64,000 nucleotides of DNA from a phage, in the sequence record PQ478073.1. One strand, given 5' to 3'. Below the pieces are notes generated by a model. The model was not told the DNA's origin. It was given only the letters and a program-made list of their open reading frames with translations, and made no database searches. Made by a program: the position numbers and the translations under genes. Position 1 is the first letter of the stretch, and the number at the start of each line of letters is the position of its first letter. Shown one piece after another: positions 16,125 to 60,696 of the stretch.

Positions 16125-16566
16125 TTTAGTAAATGGAGAGGGCGTTCGCTGCTCTTTATTTGTTAGTGGGTGTTCGCACGGATGTGATGGTTGCTTCAAT
16201 GAAGAAGCATGGGACTACCGAAGTGGACAAGAGTTCAGTACTGAAACAGTTGAGATTATACTACAGGAACTAAAAAAACCATATGTTAGTGGGTTGTCAC
16301 TTCTAGGTGGTGATCCATTAATGAAAAAGAATATAGATGAAGTTTTAAATCTATGCAAAGTAGTTAAAGAAACTTATCCTAGTAAAACTATTTGGTGCTG
16401 GAGTGGGTATACTTTAGATGAGATTATGAAAAATCATTCTAAAGATATACTTCAGTACTTAGATGTATTAGTTGATGGTAAGTTTATTGAGTCCGAAAAG
16501 AATTTAAAATTACCTTTCCGTGGTTCAAATAATCAAAGAATACTATATAAAAATAAAGATTTTTAA
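16096..16566 (+). CDS. nrdG: anaerobic RNR activating protein (radical SAM)
   Basis: aligns end to end with recalled E. coli NrdG (MNY...VNG.G.RC.LFVSGC.H.C.GC.N); overlaps upstream ORF by 29 nt. Confidence 0.9.
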   Translation: MNYQTIIKDDLVNGEGVRCSLFVSGCSHGCDGCFNEEAWDYRSGQEFSTETVEIILQELKKPYVSGLSLLGGDPLMKKNIDEVLNLCKVVKETYPSKTIWCWSGYTLDEIMKNHSKDILQYLDVLVDGKFIESEKNLKLPFRGSNNQRILYKNKDF

Positions 16567-22684: not shown

Positions 22685-22690
22685 ATTTAA

Positions 22691-22718
22691 AGCTCGTCTA
22701 TTGACGGGCTTTTCTTTT
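22691..22718 (+). terminator. intrinsic terminator (overlaps -35 of next promoter)
   Basis: 8-bp stem, T-rich tail. Confidence 0.45.
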
Positions 22719-22729
22719 ATGTGTATAAT
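22701..22729 (+). promoter_or_regulatory. sigma70-type promoter (TTGACG N17 TATAAT)
   Basis: hexamers upstream of 22752 gene. Confidence 0.5.
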
Positions 22730-25985: not shown

Positions 25986-26153
25986 CATATACAAGTGTAA
26001 TGGTACTAAAAATGCCATTACACTCAATAAATACTCAATATAAATTAACACAAGGATTAAGTATGGCACAACAAATTTTCACAGATATCCACACTACCGG
26101 AGTTATTAAATTTCAAAATAATTTTTCAGGTGCAACTGGTGTAGACATTAAAA

Positions 26154-26690
26154 ATGATGGTTTTAACATTGTCAGTACTCGGATCTATTGATGGTGAAGA
26201 TAGTTCTCTTAGTGATTCTGTGATTGCATCATTCGGAACTAATAAAAACAGTTCTTTTATTATATCTGGATGGACTGGAATGACTGATTCTGAAAATAAT
26301 GTTAAGATAAAAGCTAAAGCTACTAACGAGAATCATGAAACAGAATGGGTAACATTATATGATAGTGCAAGTAATAAGTTATATAATGTATTAAGTTCTA
26401 ATAATATTTTAATTAATCCACTGTCGGGCAATGCTGTTTTTAATATTAATTTATCTGATAGAAATACTACTATTTCGATTGGTGCGGCTCCTACTGAAGT
26501 TTATTCAATTACCATCCTATTAACACAACAAACAGGTTCAAACCTAGTTAATTGGGGTTCTAATGTTAAATGGTCATATAACAGACCAGTTGTTCTTTCT
26601 TATGAAATTGGTGAAAAAGATATTATTTCATTAGAAACATATGATAAAGGAGTTACATGGTACGGTGCATTAATTAGAGCAGGAGTATGA
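26154..26690 (+). CDS. hypothetical protein (possibly fused by frameshift to small upstream ORF 26063-26191)
   Basis: ATG 26154; upstream 43-aa ORF in another frame overlaps the start. Confidence 0.4.
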   Translation: MMVLTLSVLGSIDGEDSSLSDSVIASFGTNKNSSFIISGWTGMTDSENNVKIKAKATNENHETEWVTLYDSASNKLYNVLSSNNILINPLSGNAVFNINLSDRNTTISIGAAPTEVYSITILLTQQTGSNLVNWGSNVKWSYNRPVVLSYEIGEKDIISLETYDKGVTWYGALIRAGV

Positions 26691-26691
26691 T

Positions 26692-29481
26692 ATGTTAAAC
26701 AATAATATTGATAATATTGTACAACTTCTTTATGGGCATCACAAATTTATTGAAAGAAATACTGGTGATACAATAGACCCAACAGTACAACATTATGTGG
26801 TGAATAATCAGGGTGTTTTGGCGAACAACCGTCATTTTATTAACTATTCTGCAATGGAAGGTCAACCAAACGGTGACGGGACAACAGAAGGTCAAAGTCT
26901 ATTAATTTTAGGATACATTTATGCGTATCTGGCAACAAATGATCCAATGTTTTTAGATAAAGCCAAATGGTACTGGGATGCATATCATCAGTACTTTTAT
27001 GCTGGACGTGAATTACCAGATCCACCTACACCACTACAATGTAACTGGATAGTTAATGCCAAAGAACCTATATTGGCTAACTGGCCTTTAGCTGATGATG
27101 GATGGCCTACACATGGTGGTTTCAAGGGTGTAGAATTTACATTTACAAATGGACAATGTAAAATACCACATGGTGCACCTTATTATGGTCAGTTCTTGGA
27201 TAAAGTAACATTTGCATTCAAAGGTGCTTTAGCATGGAACCAAATAAATGCGTCAGTAAAAGCATTATTACCAGATGGTAGTGTTGATTGGGATACACCA
27301 GGTGAACAATATGATGTTGACTGGATTATCGATTTCATGGGTAGAAAAATCGACTGGGATGGTAATATTTTAGCAGAAGGTTTTGACGAATCTGAAAAAG
27401 GAACTGTTCAATTAAAGAATACAACAATTAATGGTGTATATAAATTAAATTTTGCAAATCGTCAACCAGTAGAATATGGTGGTGTGATAATTCAACGAAA
27501 TGAAATGCAACACAACCGCCCACTTCATGTTCCAATTGATTTGGAATTTGCGGATAACGCATCAGATGCAGAATTGTGGTTTAGTGATGCTTCTTATTTG
27601 TTATATAAAATAACAAAAGAAAGAAAACATTATTTGGGTTGGAAATGTTCACTACTAACGTGTTATGCTTATGGTGATATTGACTCCAGAGATAAATTTT
27701 TCAGACAAAGTACAATTGTAACCACACCATTCACTGATGGTATTTCCTATGAATATTTTTATCCAAGTGATGCTATTGCTAAGTTTGGTAGAAATTCTCT
27801 AGGATATATTACTATCAGGCAAGACCAAAGTGCACAAAGTACAATGGAACAACAAGCTATTTGGTTCAGGGTCAATGCTGATTCTAAATTACTTGTAGAC
27901 TATGGTGGTGTATGTGATGATGGTAAGCCGTTATCATTTAAACCAGTACTTGAATTGTCAAAAACAAAAAATGACCATGATGTTGTTCGTTATCGTTGTG
28001 GCTTACCGGAAAGTAAAGACCAAAATATCACACATTCATTAACACCTTTAAGTGCATTTGTTAGAGAAAAGAAAGCAGATGGTTCCCCTTATATAATTGC
28101 TGATAGTAGAATTGTTGTTCCTTATGGTGCAGCTACGTCCGAAATGATATATAGTACTGATATATTAGTTACACGCCGCGATACCATTAATCAGTTAGTT
28201 TGTGGTGAAGATGATGGTGCTGTTATTGGATTTTGGCTATTAGCAACAAATAAGTCTGAAGTTAAATCTTTTACCTATCGTTCATATGAAGATGATTACA
28301 ATATAAGAATTGTAGATGATAATGGTTGGAGATGGTGGTGGATGATTCCTGCAACACACGGGGAATGGACTACAATCACACTAAGTCCCGATACATTACG
28401 TTTATCTGGGTATCAGCCAAATCATCCAAGTTCTGACCCAAGACCAGATGCACCAGTTTATAGTGAACTAGAAGATATTACTATTTTACCTGATACAACC
28501 CCAGTAGATGGTGTTGCTGCAATAATTGATTGGTATTGTATTAATGACATTCCAGAATTATACACGGATGCTGACGGTGATGACTATACTATGACATTTT
28601 CAATAACAATTGCAGGTGAATCACCATATACTGCACAGTTAGGGGATTGTGTAATCAAAGATTATTTGTTAAACTCATTGCATTACACACCAGGAACAAT
28701 ACCATTTTCTAACATCACTGACCCGTATGCGAACCAGTATTCAGGATGGCGTGGTTTACCGTATCCAGGTTATCAATATCCTGTGATATATTGTTTTAAA
28801 GACCAGCCAGTAGATAACACACGCTTAGGAAACATGTTAAGCTTTATGAAAGATTCCCAAACATGGTTTACTCAACAATTCGGTACTGTTGGTCCGTGTG
28901 CACAAGCATATGTTTGGAACCGCTGGGATAACTTAAAATATGGTGAACCAGATACATTTACTATGCTACATTGGGGTGATCAAGCATGGAGTGGGTATGA
29001 ACCACGTGCGTTCTTTGGGGCTGCCAGAGCATGGCAAGAACTCGCAGAGAGAGGAATTGAACCACCAGCAGATCTTGTTGAATTTTGTGAGAATTGGATT
29101 CACTTTTTAATTCAATTTCAAAAAGATAATGATGGTCGTTCACCAACAATCTTCAATAAAGATGGCACAGTTGAAGGTCCAGATTGGGACTTTACAGGTC
29201 ATATGTGTGGGTTGTGGTTAGCTGGGGCTTGTGCTGCTGGATTGGCTGGATGTAAAATAGAAGGTCTAACAACACTCGCTGATAACTTAGTTCTCGAACT
29301 TCAAAAGAATTATGTTATTGTAAATCCAGGTTCACCAATGAATGGTTCATGGAGTCCAGCAGTTAGAGAAGGTACTGATAATGGTATGTTTTTTGGTTTC
29401 TGGGCAGGTGAGATTATGCGTGGATTGGGATTATACTCAATGTACCGCTTAAACACACCAAATCGTTTCCGTGATTTATAA
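26692..29481 (+). CDS. large tail-associated protein, possibly carbohydrate-active
   Basis: 929 aa, aromatic-rich, in the fibre module; enzyme assignment is a guess. Confidence 0.45.
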   Translation: MLNNNIDNIVQLLYGHHKFIERNTGDTIDPTVQHYVVNNQGVLANNRHFINYSAMEGQPNGDGTTEGQSLLILGYIYAYLATNDPMFLDKAKWYWDAYHQYFYAGRELPDPPTPLQCNWIVNAKEPILANWPLADDGWPTHGGFKGVEFTFTNGQCKIPHGAPYYGQFLDKVTFAFKGALAWNQINASVKALLPDGSVDWDTPGEQYDVDWIIDFMGRKIDWDGNILAEGFDESEKGTVQLKNTTINGVYKLNFANRQPVEYGGVIIQRNEMQHNRPLHVPIDLEFADNASDAELWFSDASYLLYKITKERKHYLGWKCSLLTCYAYGDIDSRDKFFRQSTIVTTPFTDGISYEYFYPSDAIAKFGRNSLGYITIRQDQSAQSTMEQQAIWFRVNADSKLLVDYGGVCDDGKPLSFKPVLELSKTKNDHDVVRYRCGLPESKDQNITHSLTPLSAFVREKKADGSPYIIADSRIVVPYGAATSEMIYSTDILVTRRDTINQLVCGEDDGAVIGFWLLATNKSEVKSFTYRSYEDDYNIRIVDDNGWRWWWMIPATHGEWTTITLSPDTLRLSGYQPNHPSSDPRPDAPVYSELEDITILPDTTPVDGVAAIIDWYCINDIPELYTDADGDDYTMTFSITIAGESPYTAQLGDCVIKDYLLNSLHYTPGTIPFSNITDPYANQYSGWRGLPYPGYQYPVIYCFKDQPVDNTRLGNMLSFMKDSQTWFTQQFGTVGPCAQAYVWNRWDNLKYGEPDTFTMLHWGDQAWSGYEPRAFFGAARAWQELAERGIEPPADLVEFCENWIHFLIQFQKDNDGRSPTIFNKDGTVEGPDWDFTGHMCGLWLAGACAAGLAGCKIEGLTTLADNLVLELQKNYVIVNPGSPMNGSWSPAVREGTDNGMFFGFWAGEIMRGLGLYSMYRLNTPNRFRDL

Positions 29482-29482
29482 C

Positions 29483-29511
29483 TTGACATAGAAAAAGTAA
29501 TTATGTATAAT
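29483..29511 (+). promoter_or_regulatory. sigma70-type promoter (TTGACA N17 TATAAT)
   Basis: consensus hexamers; predicted start site falls inside stem of terminator 29514-29542. Confidence 0.55.
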
Positions 29512-29513
29512 CA

Positions 29514-29542
29514 GAGAACTTCATATGGAGTTCTCTTTTTTT
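29514..29542 (+). terminator. intrinsic terminator
   Basis: 9-bp stem, ATAT loop, T7. Confidence 0.6.
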
Positions 29543-29555
29543 ATAAGGTGATAAA

Positions 29556-29975
29556 ATGTTAAATGAACGTATTAAAAATGCACTACATGTATTGAACCAA
29601 GAAGTAAATTCTATTGATAAAAGTACTGACCGTTATAAAGTAATGCATGAAATCAAACAAGAATTGGAATCTATTAATAAGGGAGAATGGTGGTATCTTC
29701 AGCCCGAATATCAAACTCGTGAATTAAACGATGTTGAAAAAGAAATTGTCAAATTCATCACTACTCGTTACTGTGATACATCAGAGAATGAGGTATCAGC
29801 GAACTTCAATCTTACTAAATTGGAAGTCGAAGAAAAATTCAATTTTGATTGGCTTGATTGGATTGAAATGGTCATGGAACTAGAAGAAAAATTCAATGTT
29901 GAAGTTGATGAAAAGTTCGAGAATAATGAAACGAAGCTGTATGAACTAGTAGAACATATTCAAAAAATGTTGTAA
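29556..29975 (+). CDS. acidic hypothetical protein
   Basis: AAGGTG RBS. Confidence 0.5.
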   Translation: MLNERIKNALHVLNQEVNSIDKSTDRYKVMHEIKQELESINKGEWWYLQPEYQTRELNDVEKEIVKFITTRYCDTSENEVSANFNLTKLEVEEKFNFDWLDWIEMVMELEEKFNVEVDEKFENNETKLYELVEHIQKML

Positions 29976-30709: not shown

Positions 30710-31321
30710 ATGAACAAATATCATGTTTACTATACGACAAAATTATCACTTCTTGAAGAATTAAATCAACGAAGTACTAAGATGAAACGCTACACTTTAA
30801 ATGGTATTACTTTTCGATATTTCCCACAAAAAGTTCTTACTTTTGTTAAGAATCCAAAATGCGTGGCATGTGGGATTGAAGCTACTGAAGTACGCATTGA
30901 ACGTTCATTATGTTCTGATCCAGTATATGGTAAACCACATTTAAATGTATATGCTGTATGTGGTCTTTATGAAGTTTTAATGACAGTTGACCATAATCAT
31001 CTGGCATCTAAGGGTGGACCTGATTTAGAGTCAAACTTTAATACTATGTGCTCCAGATGTAATCAACTACGTTCGAATAAAACTGAAACAGTTGATGAGT
31101 TTCTTGAGAAAGTTAAAGGTCGTAATCTTCTCCAAGAACATATGAATAATTTCTTTAATGTACAAAAAAAGAAAAATAACATTGACAAGTCGAAACTACT
31201 AGAAGAACGTAGGTTACGTCAAGAATTATGGGAAACTGATCATCTATGGCATGTTCGAGAGTTTGGTCGTCATATGAAAGCTTTGAAAAAAGAACAGAAG
31301 AAATTGAATAAACATGATTGA
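30710..31321 (+). CDS. HNH endonuclease (free-standing, homing-endonuclease-like)
   Basis: CVACG ... VDHNHLASKGG ... CSRCNQLR HNH motif; start re-placed at ATG 30710. Confidence 0.65.
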   Translation: MNKYHVYYTTKLSLLEELNQRSTKMKRYTLNGITFRYFPQKVLTFVKNPKCVACGIEATEVRIERSLCSDPVYGKPHLNVYAVCGLYEVLMTVDHNHLASKGGPDLESNFNTMCSRCNQLRSNKTETVDEFLEKVKGRNLLQEHMNNFFNVQKKKNNIDKSKLLEERRLRQELWETDHLWHVREFGRHMKALKKEQKKLNKHD

Positions 31322-31334
31322 TATGATATTATAG

Positions 31335-31363
31335 GGACTTGAGTATTCAAGTCCTTTTTTTTT
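31335..31363 (+). terminator. intrinsic terminator
   Basis: GGACTTGA/TCAAGTCC stem, T9. Confidence 0.65.
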
Positions 31364-31374
31364 GGAGAAAATAA

Positions 31375-31731
31375 ATGAAATCTAAAATCTTTTTACCACA
31401 ATTAATGTGGCATCTAGCAGAGTTAGATGAAAATGATGAATATACGGACTATGGTGCATGGGATGACAGTACTGAAACTTTTAAACCAGATGTAAAATAT
31501 AAAATCATCTGCAATGAAAGCAAAGGACACAAAAGGTGGACTGAAGAATTTGATCTCGTATTTCTTGACATGAGCACAAATAAGTTTTATCATTGTACTT
31601 ATGAACGAGGTTTAACAGAAGATAGACCAGTACAACCATTCAGTACTGAAACTGATGGTGTTAAGTGCAATGAAGTTTCTGTTACCAGAGAAGAAATTAT
31701 CACTTATCGAACTTTGTGGAAATATTTGTAA
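31375..31731 (+). CDS. hypothetical protein
   Basis: GGAG RBS. Confidence 0.5.
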   Translation: MKSKIFLPQLMWHLAELDENDEYTDYGAWDDSTETFKPDVKYKIICNESKGHKRWTEEFDLVFLDMSTNKFYHCTYERGLTEDRPVQPFSTETDGVKCNEVSVTREEIITYRTLWKYL

Positions 31732-32132: not shown

Positions 32133-32160
32133 GGGACATTATATGTTCCAATGATATAAT
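32133..32160 (+). promoter_or_regulatory. early-type sigma70 promoter (GGGACA N16 TGaTATAAT)
   Basis: same family as 7310, 43232, 62243. Confidence 0.6.
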
Positions 32161-33282: not shown

Positions 33283-33723
33283 ATGGAAGATATTAATGAT
33301 TTACGACACGTAATGGACTTTATCGGTAGTACTGAAGAAGATAATTCGTATGATGAAGTACTATTAACTTTTATTGAAAATAGTTTGTTTTTAAGTTCTG
33401 CTGCACATAACTGGCACTTACAATGTCATTTTTATACAAAGCATTTACAATTAGATGAACTATATAAAGAATTACCAGAATATGTAGACGCATTTGTTGA
33501 AGGTATCATGAATAATCGTGGTGCTTTACAAGTTGGAACTGGTAATAGTTATCGTTTTACACCAATTGAAGATTGTGTACCAATTCTTGAAGAATATGTT
33601 GAGCAATGTAGAGCAATTCATGATATGCTTGAAGAATCAGGTGATTACGGCAGTGTAAACACATTAGAAGATATTATGAGTTTTGTTGAAGGAACACTTT
33701 ACAAACTTAAAGTTTTACAATAA
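33283..33723 (+). CDS. acidic protein, possibly Dps/ferritin-like
   Basis: AAHNWHLQCHFYTKHLQLDELY resembles the Dps helix A/B region; weak. Confidence 0.35.
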   Translation: MEDINDLRHVMDFIGSTEEDNSYDEVLLTFIENSLFLSSAAHNWHLQCHFYTKHLQLDELYKELPEYVDAFVEGIMNNRGALQVGTGNSYRFTPIEDCVPILEEYVEQCRAIHDMLEESGDYGSVNTLEDIMSFVEGTLYKLKVLQ

Positions 33724-33730
33724 AATATAT

Positions 33731-33760
33731 GGAGAGTCATTGTGACTCTCCTTTTCTTTT
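33731..33760 (+). terminator. intrinsic terminator
   Basis: 9-bp perfect stem, T-run. Confidence 0.65.
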
Positions 33761-33771
33761 GGAGAAATAAA

Positions 33772-34389
33772 ATGAAATCTCATGATTTAGCAAAATTACT
33801 ACTATCTCAACCAAATCTAGAAATTTATCATTATGATGCAGAGAGTGACTTGCATTATCAGAATTTTGATAATAAATTAATGGTCACCCCATCTGGCATT
33901 TTCACAACGGTAAAACCCACATCAGTTTCTGAAAATGTACTTACACCATACGAAACCCCGCTCTTGGGTCATGTACAAATTTTCTTTAAGGATGGTACTA
34001 TTACTCCAAAATTGGAGGGTTCATCTATTCAAACTGTTCTTAACTTAGAATCTGGGTTGATATTTAACATTCCTTATGAAAAGCCAATTGTTTTATTAGG
34101 TAAAAATCAATCAGCACCATCAGGGAATCAAAATGCTGTTTGGTATACACCCGATGATATTGATTTCATTTCAGTACTGACAGAATATGATCCTAATACT
34201 TGGCATGAAACATGGGAAAATATGTCATATGATGAAGCAATTGAATGTGGTAAAAATTTAGCCAAAATGTTATTTCCACCAAAAAAAGAACTTTCACAAG
34301 AACAAAATGAATCATTTTCTAAAGATTTTCCTGATTCTGAATTCAATGTAAAAGTATCACCTTCTATGATTGATAAAATTGAAAAATAA
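33772..34389 (+). CDS. hypothetical protein (paralog of 35125-35709)
   Basis: N-terminus MKSHDLAKLLLSQPNLEIYH similar to MKAKDLAALLLQNPEMEVYH. Confidence 0.5.
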   Translation: MKSHDLAKLLLSQPNLEIYHYDAESDLHYQNFDNKLMVTPSGIFTTVKPTSVSENVLTPYETPLLGHVQIFFKDGTITPKLEGSSIQTVLNLESGLIFNIPYEKPIVLLGKNQSAPSGNQNAVWYTPDDIDFISVLTEYDPNTWHETWENMSYDEAIECGKNLAKMLFPPKKELSQEQNESFSKDFPDSEFNVKVSPSMIDKIEK

Positions 34390-58277: not shown

Positions 58278-58673
58278 ATGCAATATAATTATCGTGAACT
58301 AGTTGAAGCGTTAGACGAAATTACCGGAAGAGATGAAGACGAAAGTTTTTCAGTTGAAGTTGAATCCGATGTTGTAGCAGTTGATGTTCTTAAGGATATT
58401 ACCAAATGTCTTATTAACATTGTTGATAAGATTAAATCTGGTGAAGACCAAAAAGAAATTGTAGATAAACTACAAAAAGCCTGTGACATTTTGTCTGATA
58501 TTCGATATAATGATGAAAGTACTGAAGTTGCTGATGATGAAGTGTTGGAAGCCATTGCAGGTTGTTTTGGTACTGAAGGTATGGGACCAACAATTGACAA
58601 AGAAGGTGTACAACACTATAATGAACCTGGTGCACCATCTTATGCTGCACGTCAAGGTTTTGTTGGAGACTAA
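58278..58673 (+). CDS. acidic hypothetical protein
   Basis: ATG-initiated. Confidence 0.45.
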   Translation: MQYNYRELVEALDEITGRDEDESFSVEVESDVVAVDVLKDITKCLINIVDKIKSGEDQKEIVDKLQKACDILSDIRYNDESTEVADDEVLEAIAGCFGTEGMGPTIDKEGVQHYNEPGAPSYAARQGFVGD

Positions 58674-59057: not shown

Positions 59058-59080
59058 GAAAAATGAGTTAAAAATAAATG

Positions 59081-59108
59081 TTGACAAGATAGAATGATGT
59101 GATATAAT
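59081..59108 (+). promoter_or_regulatory. sigma70 promoter P1 (TTGACA N16 TGaTATAAT), -10 flanked by inverted repeat
   Basis: consensus hexamers; tandem with P2. Confidence 0.6.
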
Positions 59109-59173
59109 AAGCATCAGACATAAAGTTTTCAAGCGTCACAAGATGTGAGTTTGAAAAAAAGAAAAAAAAGTGA

Positions 59174-59201
59174 TTGACAAGTTGAAACGATGTGATATAA
59201 T
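59174..59201 (+). promoter_or_regulatory. sigma70 promoter P2 (TTGACA N16 TGaTATAAT), -10 inside 7-bp inverted repeat GATGTGA/TCACATC
   Basis: consensus hexamers. Confidence 0.6.
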
Positions 59202-59370: not shown

Positions 59371-60696
59371 ATGACTACTCAAAACGATATCCTGAACGTT
59401 AAACTGACTCCAAAGAAAGCTAAAGAAGCAATGGCACTAGCTGACATGATTCAAGATAGCCTGATGATTTGGGGTAGCCCAGGTATCGGTAAGTCTGCAA
59501 TCGCTCGTCAATACGCTGATGAAAATTACCCACTGCGTAAAGATAACGTAGCTAAAATCGAGTTCATGAAACAACAAATCGAAGCTGACCCTGAAAATGC
59601 TGATCAGCTACGCCGTGAACTGGTTGCATTTGAAGCAAAACTAATCGACCAAGATACTAACTTTATCGATTTCCGTTTGTCTCAAATCGAACCAAGTGAC
59701 CTTCGCGGTATCCCTGTACCAGAGAAGCTTTTCCGTAAAACTGACGGTTCTCTTCTCAAAGAATCTGAGCTTGCTGAAGCAAAAGATTATGTGGCTGAAA
59801 CTGCTGTAGTATGGGCTGCACCTAAAGTACTGAAATTGTCCGAAGATTGGAAAGGTGTTATTCTGTTTGACGAAATTAACTCTGCAATGCCTATTGTTCA
59901 GGCAGCGTCTTATCAGCTAATCCTCGACCGTTGTGTTGGTGAGATGAAGCTACCTAAGACTGCACTGATTCTTGCAGCAGGTAACCGTGAAACTGATGGC
60001 GGTGTAACGTTCTCTCTTGCTACACCACTGCGTGACCGTATGACTCACATTGAGATGATTCCTTATCATCAAGATTGGATTAACGATTATGCGATTGCAA
60101 AACGTTTGAACCCAGCAACTGTTGCGTTCATCAACAACACTGGTTCTAAGTACTTTAACACACTTAGCCCACAAGATCCTTCTCACAGCGGTGGTACTTC
60201 TCCACGTTCATGGGAAGCAGTAGCACGCTACGAAGATCTCAAGAAAAATAAGACAATTGATAAAGAAGTGTTCCGTGCAATGATTGCTGGTCGTGTTGGT
60301 GAAGGTGTTGCGACTGAATACATTGAGTACGTTGAGAACGTTGCTAAACTACCAGATACTATGTCTATTCTGTCTGGTGAAATCAAAGAAATCGACGCAA
60401 CGCTGGATATTTCTGCGAACTACTTTATCACTCTGAACTTGGTTTATAAAATTATCGACCTGTTCAATGAGAAGCAAGAACAACGTCTACCAGTGGAAGA
60501 ATGGGGTAAACTGTGTAACAACTTCATCACCTTCCTAGACCATAACTTCTCTGCAACTCAAGCAGAACTGGCAGTACTGGCAATTCGTACCATCACGCTT
60601 CATAAGGTTGCGATTTCCATTAAAGATGTACCAGCGTTTAAAGATTTCATCGCTAAGTACTCTGAACTTGTACGTAAAGCACGCTCTCTTGGCTAA
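59371..60696 (+). CDS. MoxR-type AAA+ ATPase (CobS-like)
   Basis: Walker A GSPGIGKS, Walker B ILFDEIN, AAGN...LRDR sensor/arginine region; strongly biased codon usage. Confidence 0.75.
   Translation: MTTQNDILNVKLTPKKAKEAMALADMIQDSLMIWGSPGIGKSAIARQYADENYPLRKDNVAKIEFMKQQIEADPENADQLRRELVAFEAKLIDQDTNFIDFRLSQIEPSDLRGIPVPEKLFRKTDGSLLKESELAEAKDYVAETAVVWAAPKVLKLSEDWKGVILFDEINSAMPIVQAASYQLILDRCVGEMKLPKTALILAAGNRETDGGVTFSLATPLRDRMTHIEMIPYHQDWINDYAIAKRLNPATVAFINNTGSKYFNTLSPQDPSHSGGTSPRSWEAVARYEDLKKNKTIDKEVFRAMIAGRVGEGVATEYIEYVENVAKLPDTMSILSGEIKEIDATLDISANYFITLNLVYKIIDLFNEKQEQRLPVEEWGKLCNNFITFLDHNFSATQAELAVLAIRTITLHKVAISIKDVPAFKDFIAKYSELVRKARSLG

Follow-up and report, generated by a model that had tools for sequence, protein, structure and literature searches.

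A Composite Promoter-Terminator Cassette, a Putative One-Way Insulator, at the Edge of a Tail-Fibre Module in an Asteriusvirus Jumbo Phage

Introduction

At positions 29483-29542 of the phage sequence PQ478073.1, a consensus sigma70 promoter is followed so closely by a terminator-like hairpin that the predicted transcription start falls inside the left arm of the stem. The window, i.e. the whole stretch of 64,000 nt that was analyzed, belongs to an Asteriusvirus (121Q/PBECO4-type) jumbo phage of E. coli. Its G+C content is about 33%, and nearly every gene lies on the + strand. The 1.6 kb around the promoter-hairpin site are 100% identical to Escherichia phage vB_EcoM_E9.1 and at least 99% identical to the phages 121Q, PBECO4, G17, SP27, and others. 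These relatives are jumbo myoviruses of about 350 kb which belong to the genus Asteriusvirus. The features of the locus are as follows.

26000-29481: tail-fibre module of about 3.4 kb, with the 929-aa gene as its last gene
26692..29481, + strand: upstream 929-aa ORF from the ORF list, annotated as "tail protein" in E9.1
29453..29482, + strand: last 9 codons and stop codon of the tail gene, the 30 nt 5′ of the -35 hexamer, retained in relatives without the tail module
29483..29488, + strand: -35 hexamer TTGACA, from sequence reading and consensus scan
29506..29511, + strand: -10 hexamer TATAAT, 17-nt spacer from the -35 hexamer, from sequence reading and consensus scan
29513..29536, + strand: terminator stem-loop AGAGAACTTC-ATAT-GGAGTTCTCT, 10 pairs including one G-U, loop of 4 nt
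29516..29518, + strand: predicted start at G29516, A29517, or A29518, placed by the usual distance of 6-8 nt between the -10 hexamer and the start
29537..29542, + strand: T-run (U-tract) of six residues, from sequence reading
29545..29551, + strand: Shine-Dalgarno sequence AAGGTGA, from sequence reading, kept in relatives
29556..29975, + strand: downstream 139-aa ORF with a weak acyl-carrier-like match

The 929-aa gene named upstream of the element in the initial annotation is confirmed in the ORF list, with its stop at 29481, and would be the source of read-through transcripts reaching the hairpin. The ATG of the 139-aa ORF is located at 29556, and this ORF is followed by spanin-like, lipoprotein-like, and HNH genes.

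Architecture of the Promoter-Hairpin Element

The promoter matches the sigma70 consensus in 12 out of 12 positions, with a spacing within 16-18 bp. Its proposed layout (TTGACA at 29483, N17, TATAAT at 29506-29511) was borne out by direct reading and by the consensus scan. The exact arrangement TTGACA-N17-TATAAT occurs twice in the window, while shuffled sequences give an expectation of 0.01. The 20 nt located 5′ of the -35 hexamer (tcgtttccgtgatttataac) contain 65% A+T, compared with about 66% in the genome, and are also coding sequence.

The hairpin begins one base after the -10 hexamer, and the canonical +7 position, A29518, is base six of its left arm. The stem-loop folds with -13.5 kcal/mol (z = -4.8), and 0 of 200 shuffled sequences fold as well. 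A G+C-containing stem stands directly before a U-run of six to seven residues, as is expected for an intrinsic terminator. The hairpin had originally been described as a 9-bp stem at 29514-29535 with T7, which is equivalent to the 10-bp stem at 29513-29536 with T6; the coordinates were right to within 1 nt. Both the promoter and the hairpin are far beyond chance. The hairpin contains four G-C pairs and its stability is only moderate, for which reason the termination of upstream transcripts may be partial. The + strand folds with -13.5 kcal/mol and the - strand with -9.9 kcal/mol owing to the G-U pair, and the T-run is present on the + strand only. Since the + strand folds better and alone has the T-run, this asymmetry points to a function of the hairpin at the RNA level and on the + strand. 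The hairpin has no counterpart among the described RNA families, as no Rfam match was found in the whole window at gathering thresholds. The "terminator" features present at this junction in the UE-S1 and G17 records are software predictions.

Conservation of the Junction in Related Phages

The orthologous junction was compared in UE-S1, ph0011, A4, Turkey5, fEgEco12, RaK2, and slurp01. The closer sequences UE-S1 and ph0011 show about 83% identity where they can be aligned, which is from window position 29453 on, and their hairpin is unchanged. In A4 and Turkey5 the downstream protein shares 63% and 37% identity, respectively, and the C-termini of the tail proteins differ. The hexamer TTGACA is invariant across five sequences (the window, UE-S1, ph0011, A4, and Turkey5). 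The -10 hexamer reads TATAGT in ph0011, TAAACT in A4, and TATAAT in Turkey5. The spacers of the orthologues measure 16-18 nt (16 nt in UE-S1, 18 nt in ph0011), while the spacer sequence itself cannot be aligned between the window, A4, and Turkey5. The conservation of the hexamers in spite of the divergence of spacer and flanks argues for a real promoter. Coding constraint does not account for the conserved -35 hexamer, since in Turkey5 it overlaps the stop codon.

The geometry of the element has also been retained. In A4 and Turkey5 the hairpin starts 0-1 nt after the -10 hexamer, and the T-run and the Shine-Dalgarno sequence are kept. All 10 pairs of the hairpin are preserved in three distinct variants (100% pairing), which differ by one compensatory A-U to U-A change and two U-A/U-G swaps. 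This covariation alone is not significant, as it is reached by 168 of 500 shuffles and only three distinct sequences are available, and it can be regarded as supportive only.

Boundary of the Tail Module

The element forms the right edge of the 3.4-kb tail module and thereby marks an indel boundary, as the module is absent from slurp01, UE-S1, ph0011, and fEgEco12. In slurp01, UE-S1, and ph0011 homology resumes at about 29453, and the cassette has been kept together with the last 30 nt of the tail gene. Two independent deletions are evident, one in slurp01 and the other in UE-S1/ph0011, with the junction microhomologies CACA(A/C)CAAAT and ACAC. The right ends of both deletions differ by only a few bases and are located about 30 nt 5′ of the -35 hexamer. 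The phage fEgEco12 contains neither the module nor the cassette, and its nucleotidyltransferase gene runs straight into the 139-aa ORF. RaK2 has no cassette at the 139-aa ORF junction. Phages with the tail module or with remnants of it also have the cassette. The cassette thus behaves as an insulating end-piece of the module, which would stop the module transcripts and restore a promoter for the resident downstream genes. The tail module is variable among Asteriusvirus phages and is probably relevant for host range.

The location at an indel boundary could also imply that the cassette is primarily a recombination linker, which moves the tail-fibre module in and out in the manner of the promoter-early stem-loops (PeSLs) of T4-like phages. 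The cassette lies exactly where the 3.4-kb module ends on its right side, and some close relatives possess this module and others lack it; PeSLs have been reported at such boundaries (PMC2839356, PMC4122927). Against this role, the left module edge carries no second copy, and none of the repeat families includes the cassette. The deletions in slurp01 and UE-S1/ph0011 used microhomologies upstream of the promoter and not an exchange between cassettes. PeSL-style recombination at the tail-module site was rejected for these reasons, i.e. the missing partner cassette at the left edge and the microhomologies at the junctions, and a linker as the primary function is highly improbable.

Recurrence of the Cassette

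Further elements with the same order of signals were found on the + strand of the window.

31304..31363, + strand: second cassette, TTGAAT-N17-TATTAT with TGn, abutting AGGGACTTGA-GTAT-TCAAGTCCTT and T7
40491..40549, + strand: third cassette, TTGACA-N17-TATACT, abutting AAAGGGACAGA-TTAAT-TCTGTCCCTTT and TCTT
33698..33759, + strand: doubtful site, TTTACA-N17-TAAAAT, then 4 nt, then GGAGAGTCA-TTG-TGACTCTCC and a T-run

The second cassette is followed by GGAG and an ATG at 31375, and its -35 hexamer and most of its spacer lie inside the HNH ORF. It has been kept in UE-S1, ph0011, fEgEco12, A4, and Turkey5, with changes in the right arm that preserve pairing. The third cassette has an 11-bp stem and is followed by GGAG and an ATG at 40565. 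In Turkey5 it carries a 12/12 promoter; A4 keeps TATAAT and has lost the -35 hexamer. The overlap of the -35 hexamer and most of the spacer with the upstream ORF is common to both cassettes, and the intergenic gap is 53 nt. The site at 33698 was downgraded to a weaker, doubtful candidate for a fourth cassette, because its "-35" and spacer belong to the coding sequence of a Dps-like gene and A4 has the motif in a degenerate form. Only the terminator at this site is solid, and in Turkey5 it shows a compensatory change from A-U to C-G. No nested cassette was found in the first 50 kb of E9.1.

The segments 31352-31383 and 33749-33780 are 91% identical over 32 nt (T-run, GGAGAAA, ATGAAATCT), and the ORFs downstream of them share the first codons M-K-S. 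The GGAG Shine-Dalgarno sites in both segments presumably resemble the targets of the T4 RegB nuclease.

The preference for this geometry was assessed in OR844650.1, an unannotated genome with 99.5% identity, which contains 94 terminator-like hairpins on the + strand. A promoter match of at least 9/12, with the -10 hexamer ending 0-4 nt before the stem, precedes 10 of the 94 hairpins, and matches of at least 10/12 are found in this register in five cases. Shuffling of the 40 nt upstream of each hairpin gave means of 1.96 (at least 9/12) and 0.32 (at least 10/12), and 0 of 2000 shuffles reached the observed values. The density of matches in the genome predicts 1.5 and 0.4, and control bins 5-99 nt further upstream contain on average about 1.2 and 0.16, respectively. 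This genome-wide enrichment indicates that the abutting register is a preferred geometry and not an accident of a single site. The same genome also uses conventional registers, in which the terminator precedes the promoter or the -35 hexamer lies inside the stem.

These results bear on the possibility that only the terminator is functional and that TTGACA-N17-TATAAT is a chance match or a relic, which gives no significant transcription during infection. Regional silencing of sigma70 promoters or DNA modification could be examples of such a situation. AT-rich DNA is indeed rich in promoter-like matches (59 of at least 9/12 in 11 kb versus 58 expected), the second 12/12 match of the window sits in a coding region at 58594, and the A4 version of the promoter reaches only 10/12. 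On the other hand, the number of 12/12 matches expected by chance per window is 0.01. The hexamers and a spacer length of 16-18 nt are conserved while spacer sequence and flanks diverge, and the position relative to the hairpin is both conserved and enriched genome-wide. An inactive promoter is therefore regarded as unlikely.

The recurrence also allows a possible function of the inverted repeat as a DNA operator to be judged. In this case the palindrome would be bound across the start site by a dimeric protein of the phage or the host, which would turn the promoter off (or on), and the RNA hairpin would play a secondary part. The predicted start does lie within the palindrome, and terminator palindromes can double as binding sites of factors, as with LexA at yobI/ruvA (preprint 10.64898/2026.08.19.745784). 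The repeat is, however, imperfect in DNA, where the G-U pair corresponds to a G-T mismatch, and the changes found in relatives preserve the pairing of the RNA and not the symmetry of the DNA. The three cassettes contain three unrelated stems, which implies that there is no common operator, and a T-run follows each stem on the + strand only. Given the unrelated stems, the G-U pairs, and the T-runs on one strand, an operator was rejected as the main function, and there is very little chance that the repeat serves primarily in this way.

Proposed Mode of Action

For intrinsic termination, no more than about 7-9 nt may separate the stem from the RNA 3′ end. RNA folding of a read-through transcript with the full stem and the adjoining U-run gave -13.0 kcal/mol. 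The values for locally started transcripts depend on the first nucleotide as follows.

Start at 29517: 6 pairs kept, -3.5 kcal/mol
Start at 29518: 5 of 10 pairs kept, -2.6 kcal/mol
Start at 29519: 4 pairs kept, -1.4 kcal/mol

The residual stem of these transcripts ends 4-6 nt before the U-run (5 nt for 29518). RNAs starting at 29517-29519 should not terminate, because the residual stem is detached from the U-run. The initial annotation had stated that locally started RNA cannot form the full hairpin, and for the starts at 29517-29519, with four to six weak pairs, the folding results agree. The same energetic outcome was obtained for the cassettes at 31333 and 40520. A start at 29515 leaves an 8-bp stem with -8.0 kcal/mol and a start at 29516 a 7-bp stem with -7.5 kcal/mol; if initiation takes place unusually close to the -10 hexamer, at one of these two positions, partial self-attenuation is possible.

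We propose that the cassette works in the following way. Transcripts coming from the upstream tail module would carry the whole 10-bp hairpin together with the U-run and would terminate at about 29541-29544. The host sigma70 RNA polymerase would recognize the consensus -35 and -10 hexamers and start at about A29517/A29518, inside the left arm. The local transcripts would then miss four to five bases of the left arm and could form only a weak stem of 5-6 bp. With the terminator disabled in this way, they would run on into the 139-aa ORF and the later genes. Placed before the terminator, the promoter could abut or overlap the last part of the upstream gene, which would keep the intergenic gap at 53-74 nt. 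This order gives the shortest gap, because a terminator needs untranslated RNA and a promoter does not. Promoter activity, start position, termination, and escape are all deduced here from the nucleotide sequence; self-escape combined with upstream termination is plausible, and "terminate upstream, escape locally" is the best-supported reading. Interference instead of clean insulation is possible, because upstream polymerases cross the promoter before they terminate. The literature searched contained no mapped 5′ or 3′ ends for phages of the Asteriusvirus/RaK2 group, and nothing directly applicable on transcription starts mapped within the stem of a terminator.

If the promoter is real but its own transcripts are affected by the residual hairpin, the hairpin would have a further task in addition to the termination of upstream transcripts. 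The remaining stem could act as a promoter-proximal attenuator, in the case of starts at 29515/29516, or as a 5′-terminal stem that stabilizes the mRNA or modulates its translation. The 8 or 7 bp left by these starts (-8.0 and -7.5 kcal/mol) are consistent with this, and the RNA from 29518 begins exactly at the base of the 5-bp stem. Stems at the 5′ end are known to protect mRNAs in E. coli. About 25 cassettes of a promoter plus a 5′ stem-loop without T-runs are present in the early region of this phage type; their stems start 10-12 nt after the -10 hexamer, which is a clearly different register. With the canonical +7 start the residual stem has -2.6 kcal/mol, a marginal value for any structural role, and the T-run and the abutting position fit a terminator of upstream RNA better. 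A role of the residual hairpin is accordingly rather unlikely, though less so than an inactive promoter.

Taken together, we consider it likely that the element is a composite promoter-terminator cassette which serves as a one-way insulator at a gene-module boundary. The proposal of a compact insulator-plus-promoter arrangement agrees with the conservation, the recurrence, and the energetics. The arrangement is not a one-off and represents a register of a known promoter-terminator class (PMC2839356). The presence of lysis-type genes, which are not obviously "early", among the downstream genes counts against the insulator reading.

Relation to Known Systems

The PeSLs, which are the nearest counterparts of the cassette, are known from the T4-like phage pairs RB49/phi1, PST/T4, and nt-1/KVP40 (Arbiol et al. 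2010, PMC2839356; Comeau et al. 2014, PMC4122927). Their stem-loops terminate upstream transcription, and their promoters are strong in reporter assays (PMC2839356). Like the PeSLs, the Asteriusvirus cassette consists of a near-consensus sigma70 promoter and a stem-loop in an intergenic position, followed by a Shine-Dalgarno sequence and an ATG (PMC2839356). It is likewise located at an indel boundary between close relatives and would provide transcriptional isolation of gene modules. The register of the two elements differs. The stems of PeSLs are most commonly found between the -35 and -10 hexamers, overlapping the -10 hexamer, or 5′ of the promoter, whereas the stem described here abuts the -10 hexamer on its downstream side and spans the predicted start. 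The PeSL stem is of the polyG/polyC type, and that of the Asteriusvirus cassette is a canonical terminator with a U-run. PeSLs form a multi-copy family conserved over about 100 bp, in contrast to the three Asteriusvirus cassettes. No repeat family including 29483-29555 was found; only the 3′ 32 nt at 31352 and 33749 are alike. In PeSLs an AT-rich tract precedes the -35 hexamer; the corresponding 20 nt of the cassette have about the A+T content of the genome and are coding sequence. PeSLs are rearranged by recombination between cassettes, with mini-circles, while the indels observed here arose at microhomologies. The PeSL hosts are T4-like phages, and the carrier of the present cassette is a 350-kb Asteriusvirus.

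In the promoter-coupled terminators of bacteria, the transcription start follows the termination site at a distance of about 10 bp, the stem also serves as the -35 hexamer, and the T-tract is placed shortly upstream of the -10 hexamer (Fletcher et al. 2026, preprint 10.64898/2026.08.19.745784). The cassette shares with them the overlap of a terminator and a promoter of the same strand within 35 bp between tandem genes, which saves space and couples neighboring units (10.64898/2026.08.19.745784). It is distinguished from them by the location of the whole promoter 5′ of the stem and by a predicted start about 25 nt upstream of the termination site. RaK2 has the promoter-coupled-terminator register at the junction orthologous to the second cassette (31304-31363). 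The window also contains a hairpin in this register at 22689-22729, AAAGCTCGTC-TATT-GACGGGCTTT, which overlaps a promoter with the -35 hexamer TTGACG in the loop and right arm, a T-tract in the spacer, and TATAAT at 22724-22729; this matches the arrangement described for bacteria (10.64898/2026.08.19.745784). A further case of overlapped terminator and promoter begins at about 60708.

The "morons" of lambdoid phages are inserted genes with their own promoter and terminator (PMC2839356). As with the morons, the signals of the cassette would keep an inserted module from disturbing the expression of its neighbors (PMC2839356). Unlike in the morons, the terminator would end the inserted module and the promoter would serve the resident genes, and both signals are fused in a 60-nt element. 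In the papers on PA5oct and CBB, promoters and terminators are listed separately. The logic of the cassette is thus already known. The apparent novelty lies in the combination of a canonical terminator and a fixed "start-inside-the-stem" register, which is recurrent and conserved in a jumbo-phage lineage; no description of this register was found in the literature searched.

A more far-reaching reading can be put forward tentatively, and we hold it to be somewhat less probable than its opposite. Asteriusvirus phages may possess a "start-inside-the-stem" class of elements, in which the -10 hexamer lies 0-4 nt before a canonical terminator and which would comprise about 5-10% of the terminators. 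The members of this class would be strictly directional insulators, with local RNA immune to termination for want of half of the stem. Initiation would be mechanically coupled to upstream termination, since the promoter-bound polymerase also sits on the terminator DNA, in a register opposite to that of the bacterial promoter-coupled terminators. If this reading is true, the cassette would constitute a temporal switch between early expression by the host polymerase and a late block of read-through.

If end mapping confirms the proposed mechanism, incoming transcription is halted and then resumed at a defined strength by a natural part of 60 nt. The restart would be unaffected by the stop signal, and the cassette would be useful as a compact insulator in synthetic operons. 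The cassette mirrors the promoter-coupled terminators, which have recently been proposed to be universal in bacteria. With the promoter placed over the terminator rather than after it, the cassette offers a natural test of interference between a promoter-bound and a terminating polymerase. The jumbo phages of the 121Q/PBECO4 type would separate their modules by the same logic as the T4-like phages do with PeSLs, and this helps to define their transcription units.

Other Sequence Elements of the Window and the Early Region

In the E9.1 record, a repeated cassette is present between 2400 and 20000 in nearly every gap between the small ORFs of the early region, and the same family is found in OR844650.1 (reverse complement) at about 30-50 kb. 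It consists of (AAAGTAC)TTGCAA or TTGACA, a 16-nt spacer often ending in AGTACTG, TATAAT, and then GTTTTACAT. Its 3′ part is a G-rich/C-rich stem-loop without a T-run, followed by a Shine-Dalgarno sequence and an ATG. The family comprises about 25 copies, with the stem starting 10-12 nt after the -10 hexamer. By its sequence it is a family of PeSL-like repeats, predicted to place a stem-loop at the 5′ end of the early transcripts. No description of this family for the Asteriusvirus group was found in the literature searched.

The palindrome AGTACT, which flanks the -35 and -10 hexamers of the early promoters, occurs 139 times in the window, compared with 21.5 expected from the base composition (6.5-fold), and is by far the most over-represented palindromic hexamer there. 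Examples are located at 16237, 22490, 31468, 31642, 34900, and 41616. Its presence in all three reading frames argues for a DNA-level signal. The extended form AGTACTGAAA is found 13 times on the + strand and twice on the - strand. For the relatives CBB and GAP32, a second promoter class with a TGAAACG "-35" has been reported (PMC5259590), which TGAAAC resembles.

Two tandem copies of a consensus promoter, 77% identical and 93 bp apart, are located at 59070-59201, in a gap of 313 nt 5′ of a 441-aa ORF at 59371. Each copy consists of TTGACAAG with an A-rich tract upstream, followed by a 16-nt spacer and (TGTGA)TATAAT. The window contains one other exact TTGACA-N17-TATAAT, at 58594-58622. It is located within a 131-aa ORF (58278-58673), about 50 nt 5′ of the stop codon, and may serve the next gene as an internal promoter.

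The segment 32132-32821 on the + strand comprises about 690 nt without a convincing ORF; four tiny hypothetical proteins are annotated there in the E9.1 record. A TGnTATAAT promoter-like site (32133-32160) stands just before its beginning. Its nucleotide identity is 86% to Turkey5 and 79% to A4, while the neighboring protein genes show 57-83%; the segment is thus more strongly conserved than the genes on either side. It contains an internal hairpin with a T-run, in which A4 shows compensatory changes. No Rfam match was obtained for the segment. RNAalifold analysis of three sequences predicted 182 pairs, 27 of them with compensatory changes. The segment may represent a large structured RNA, so far undescribed, of Asteriusvirus phages, and may be a more novel object than the promoter-hairpin cassette.
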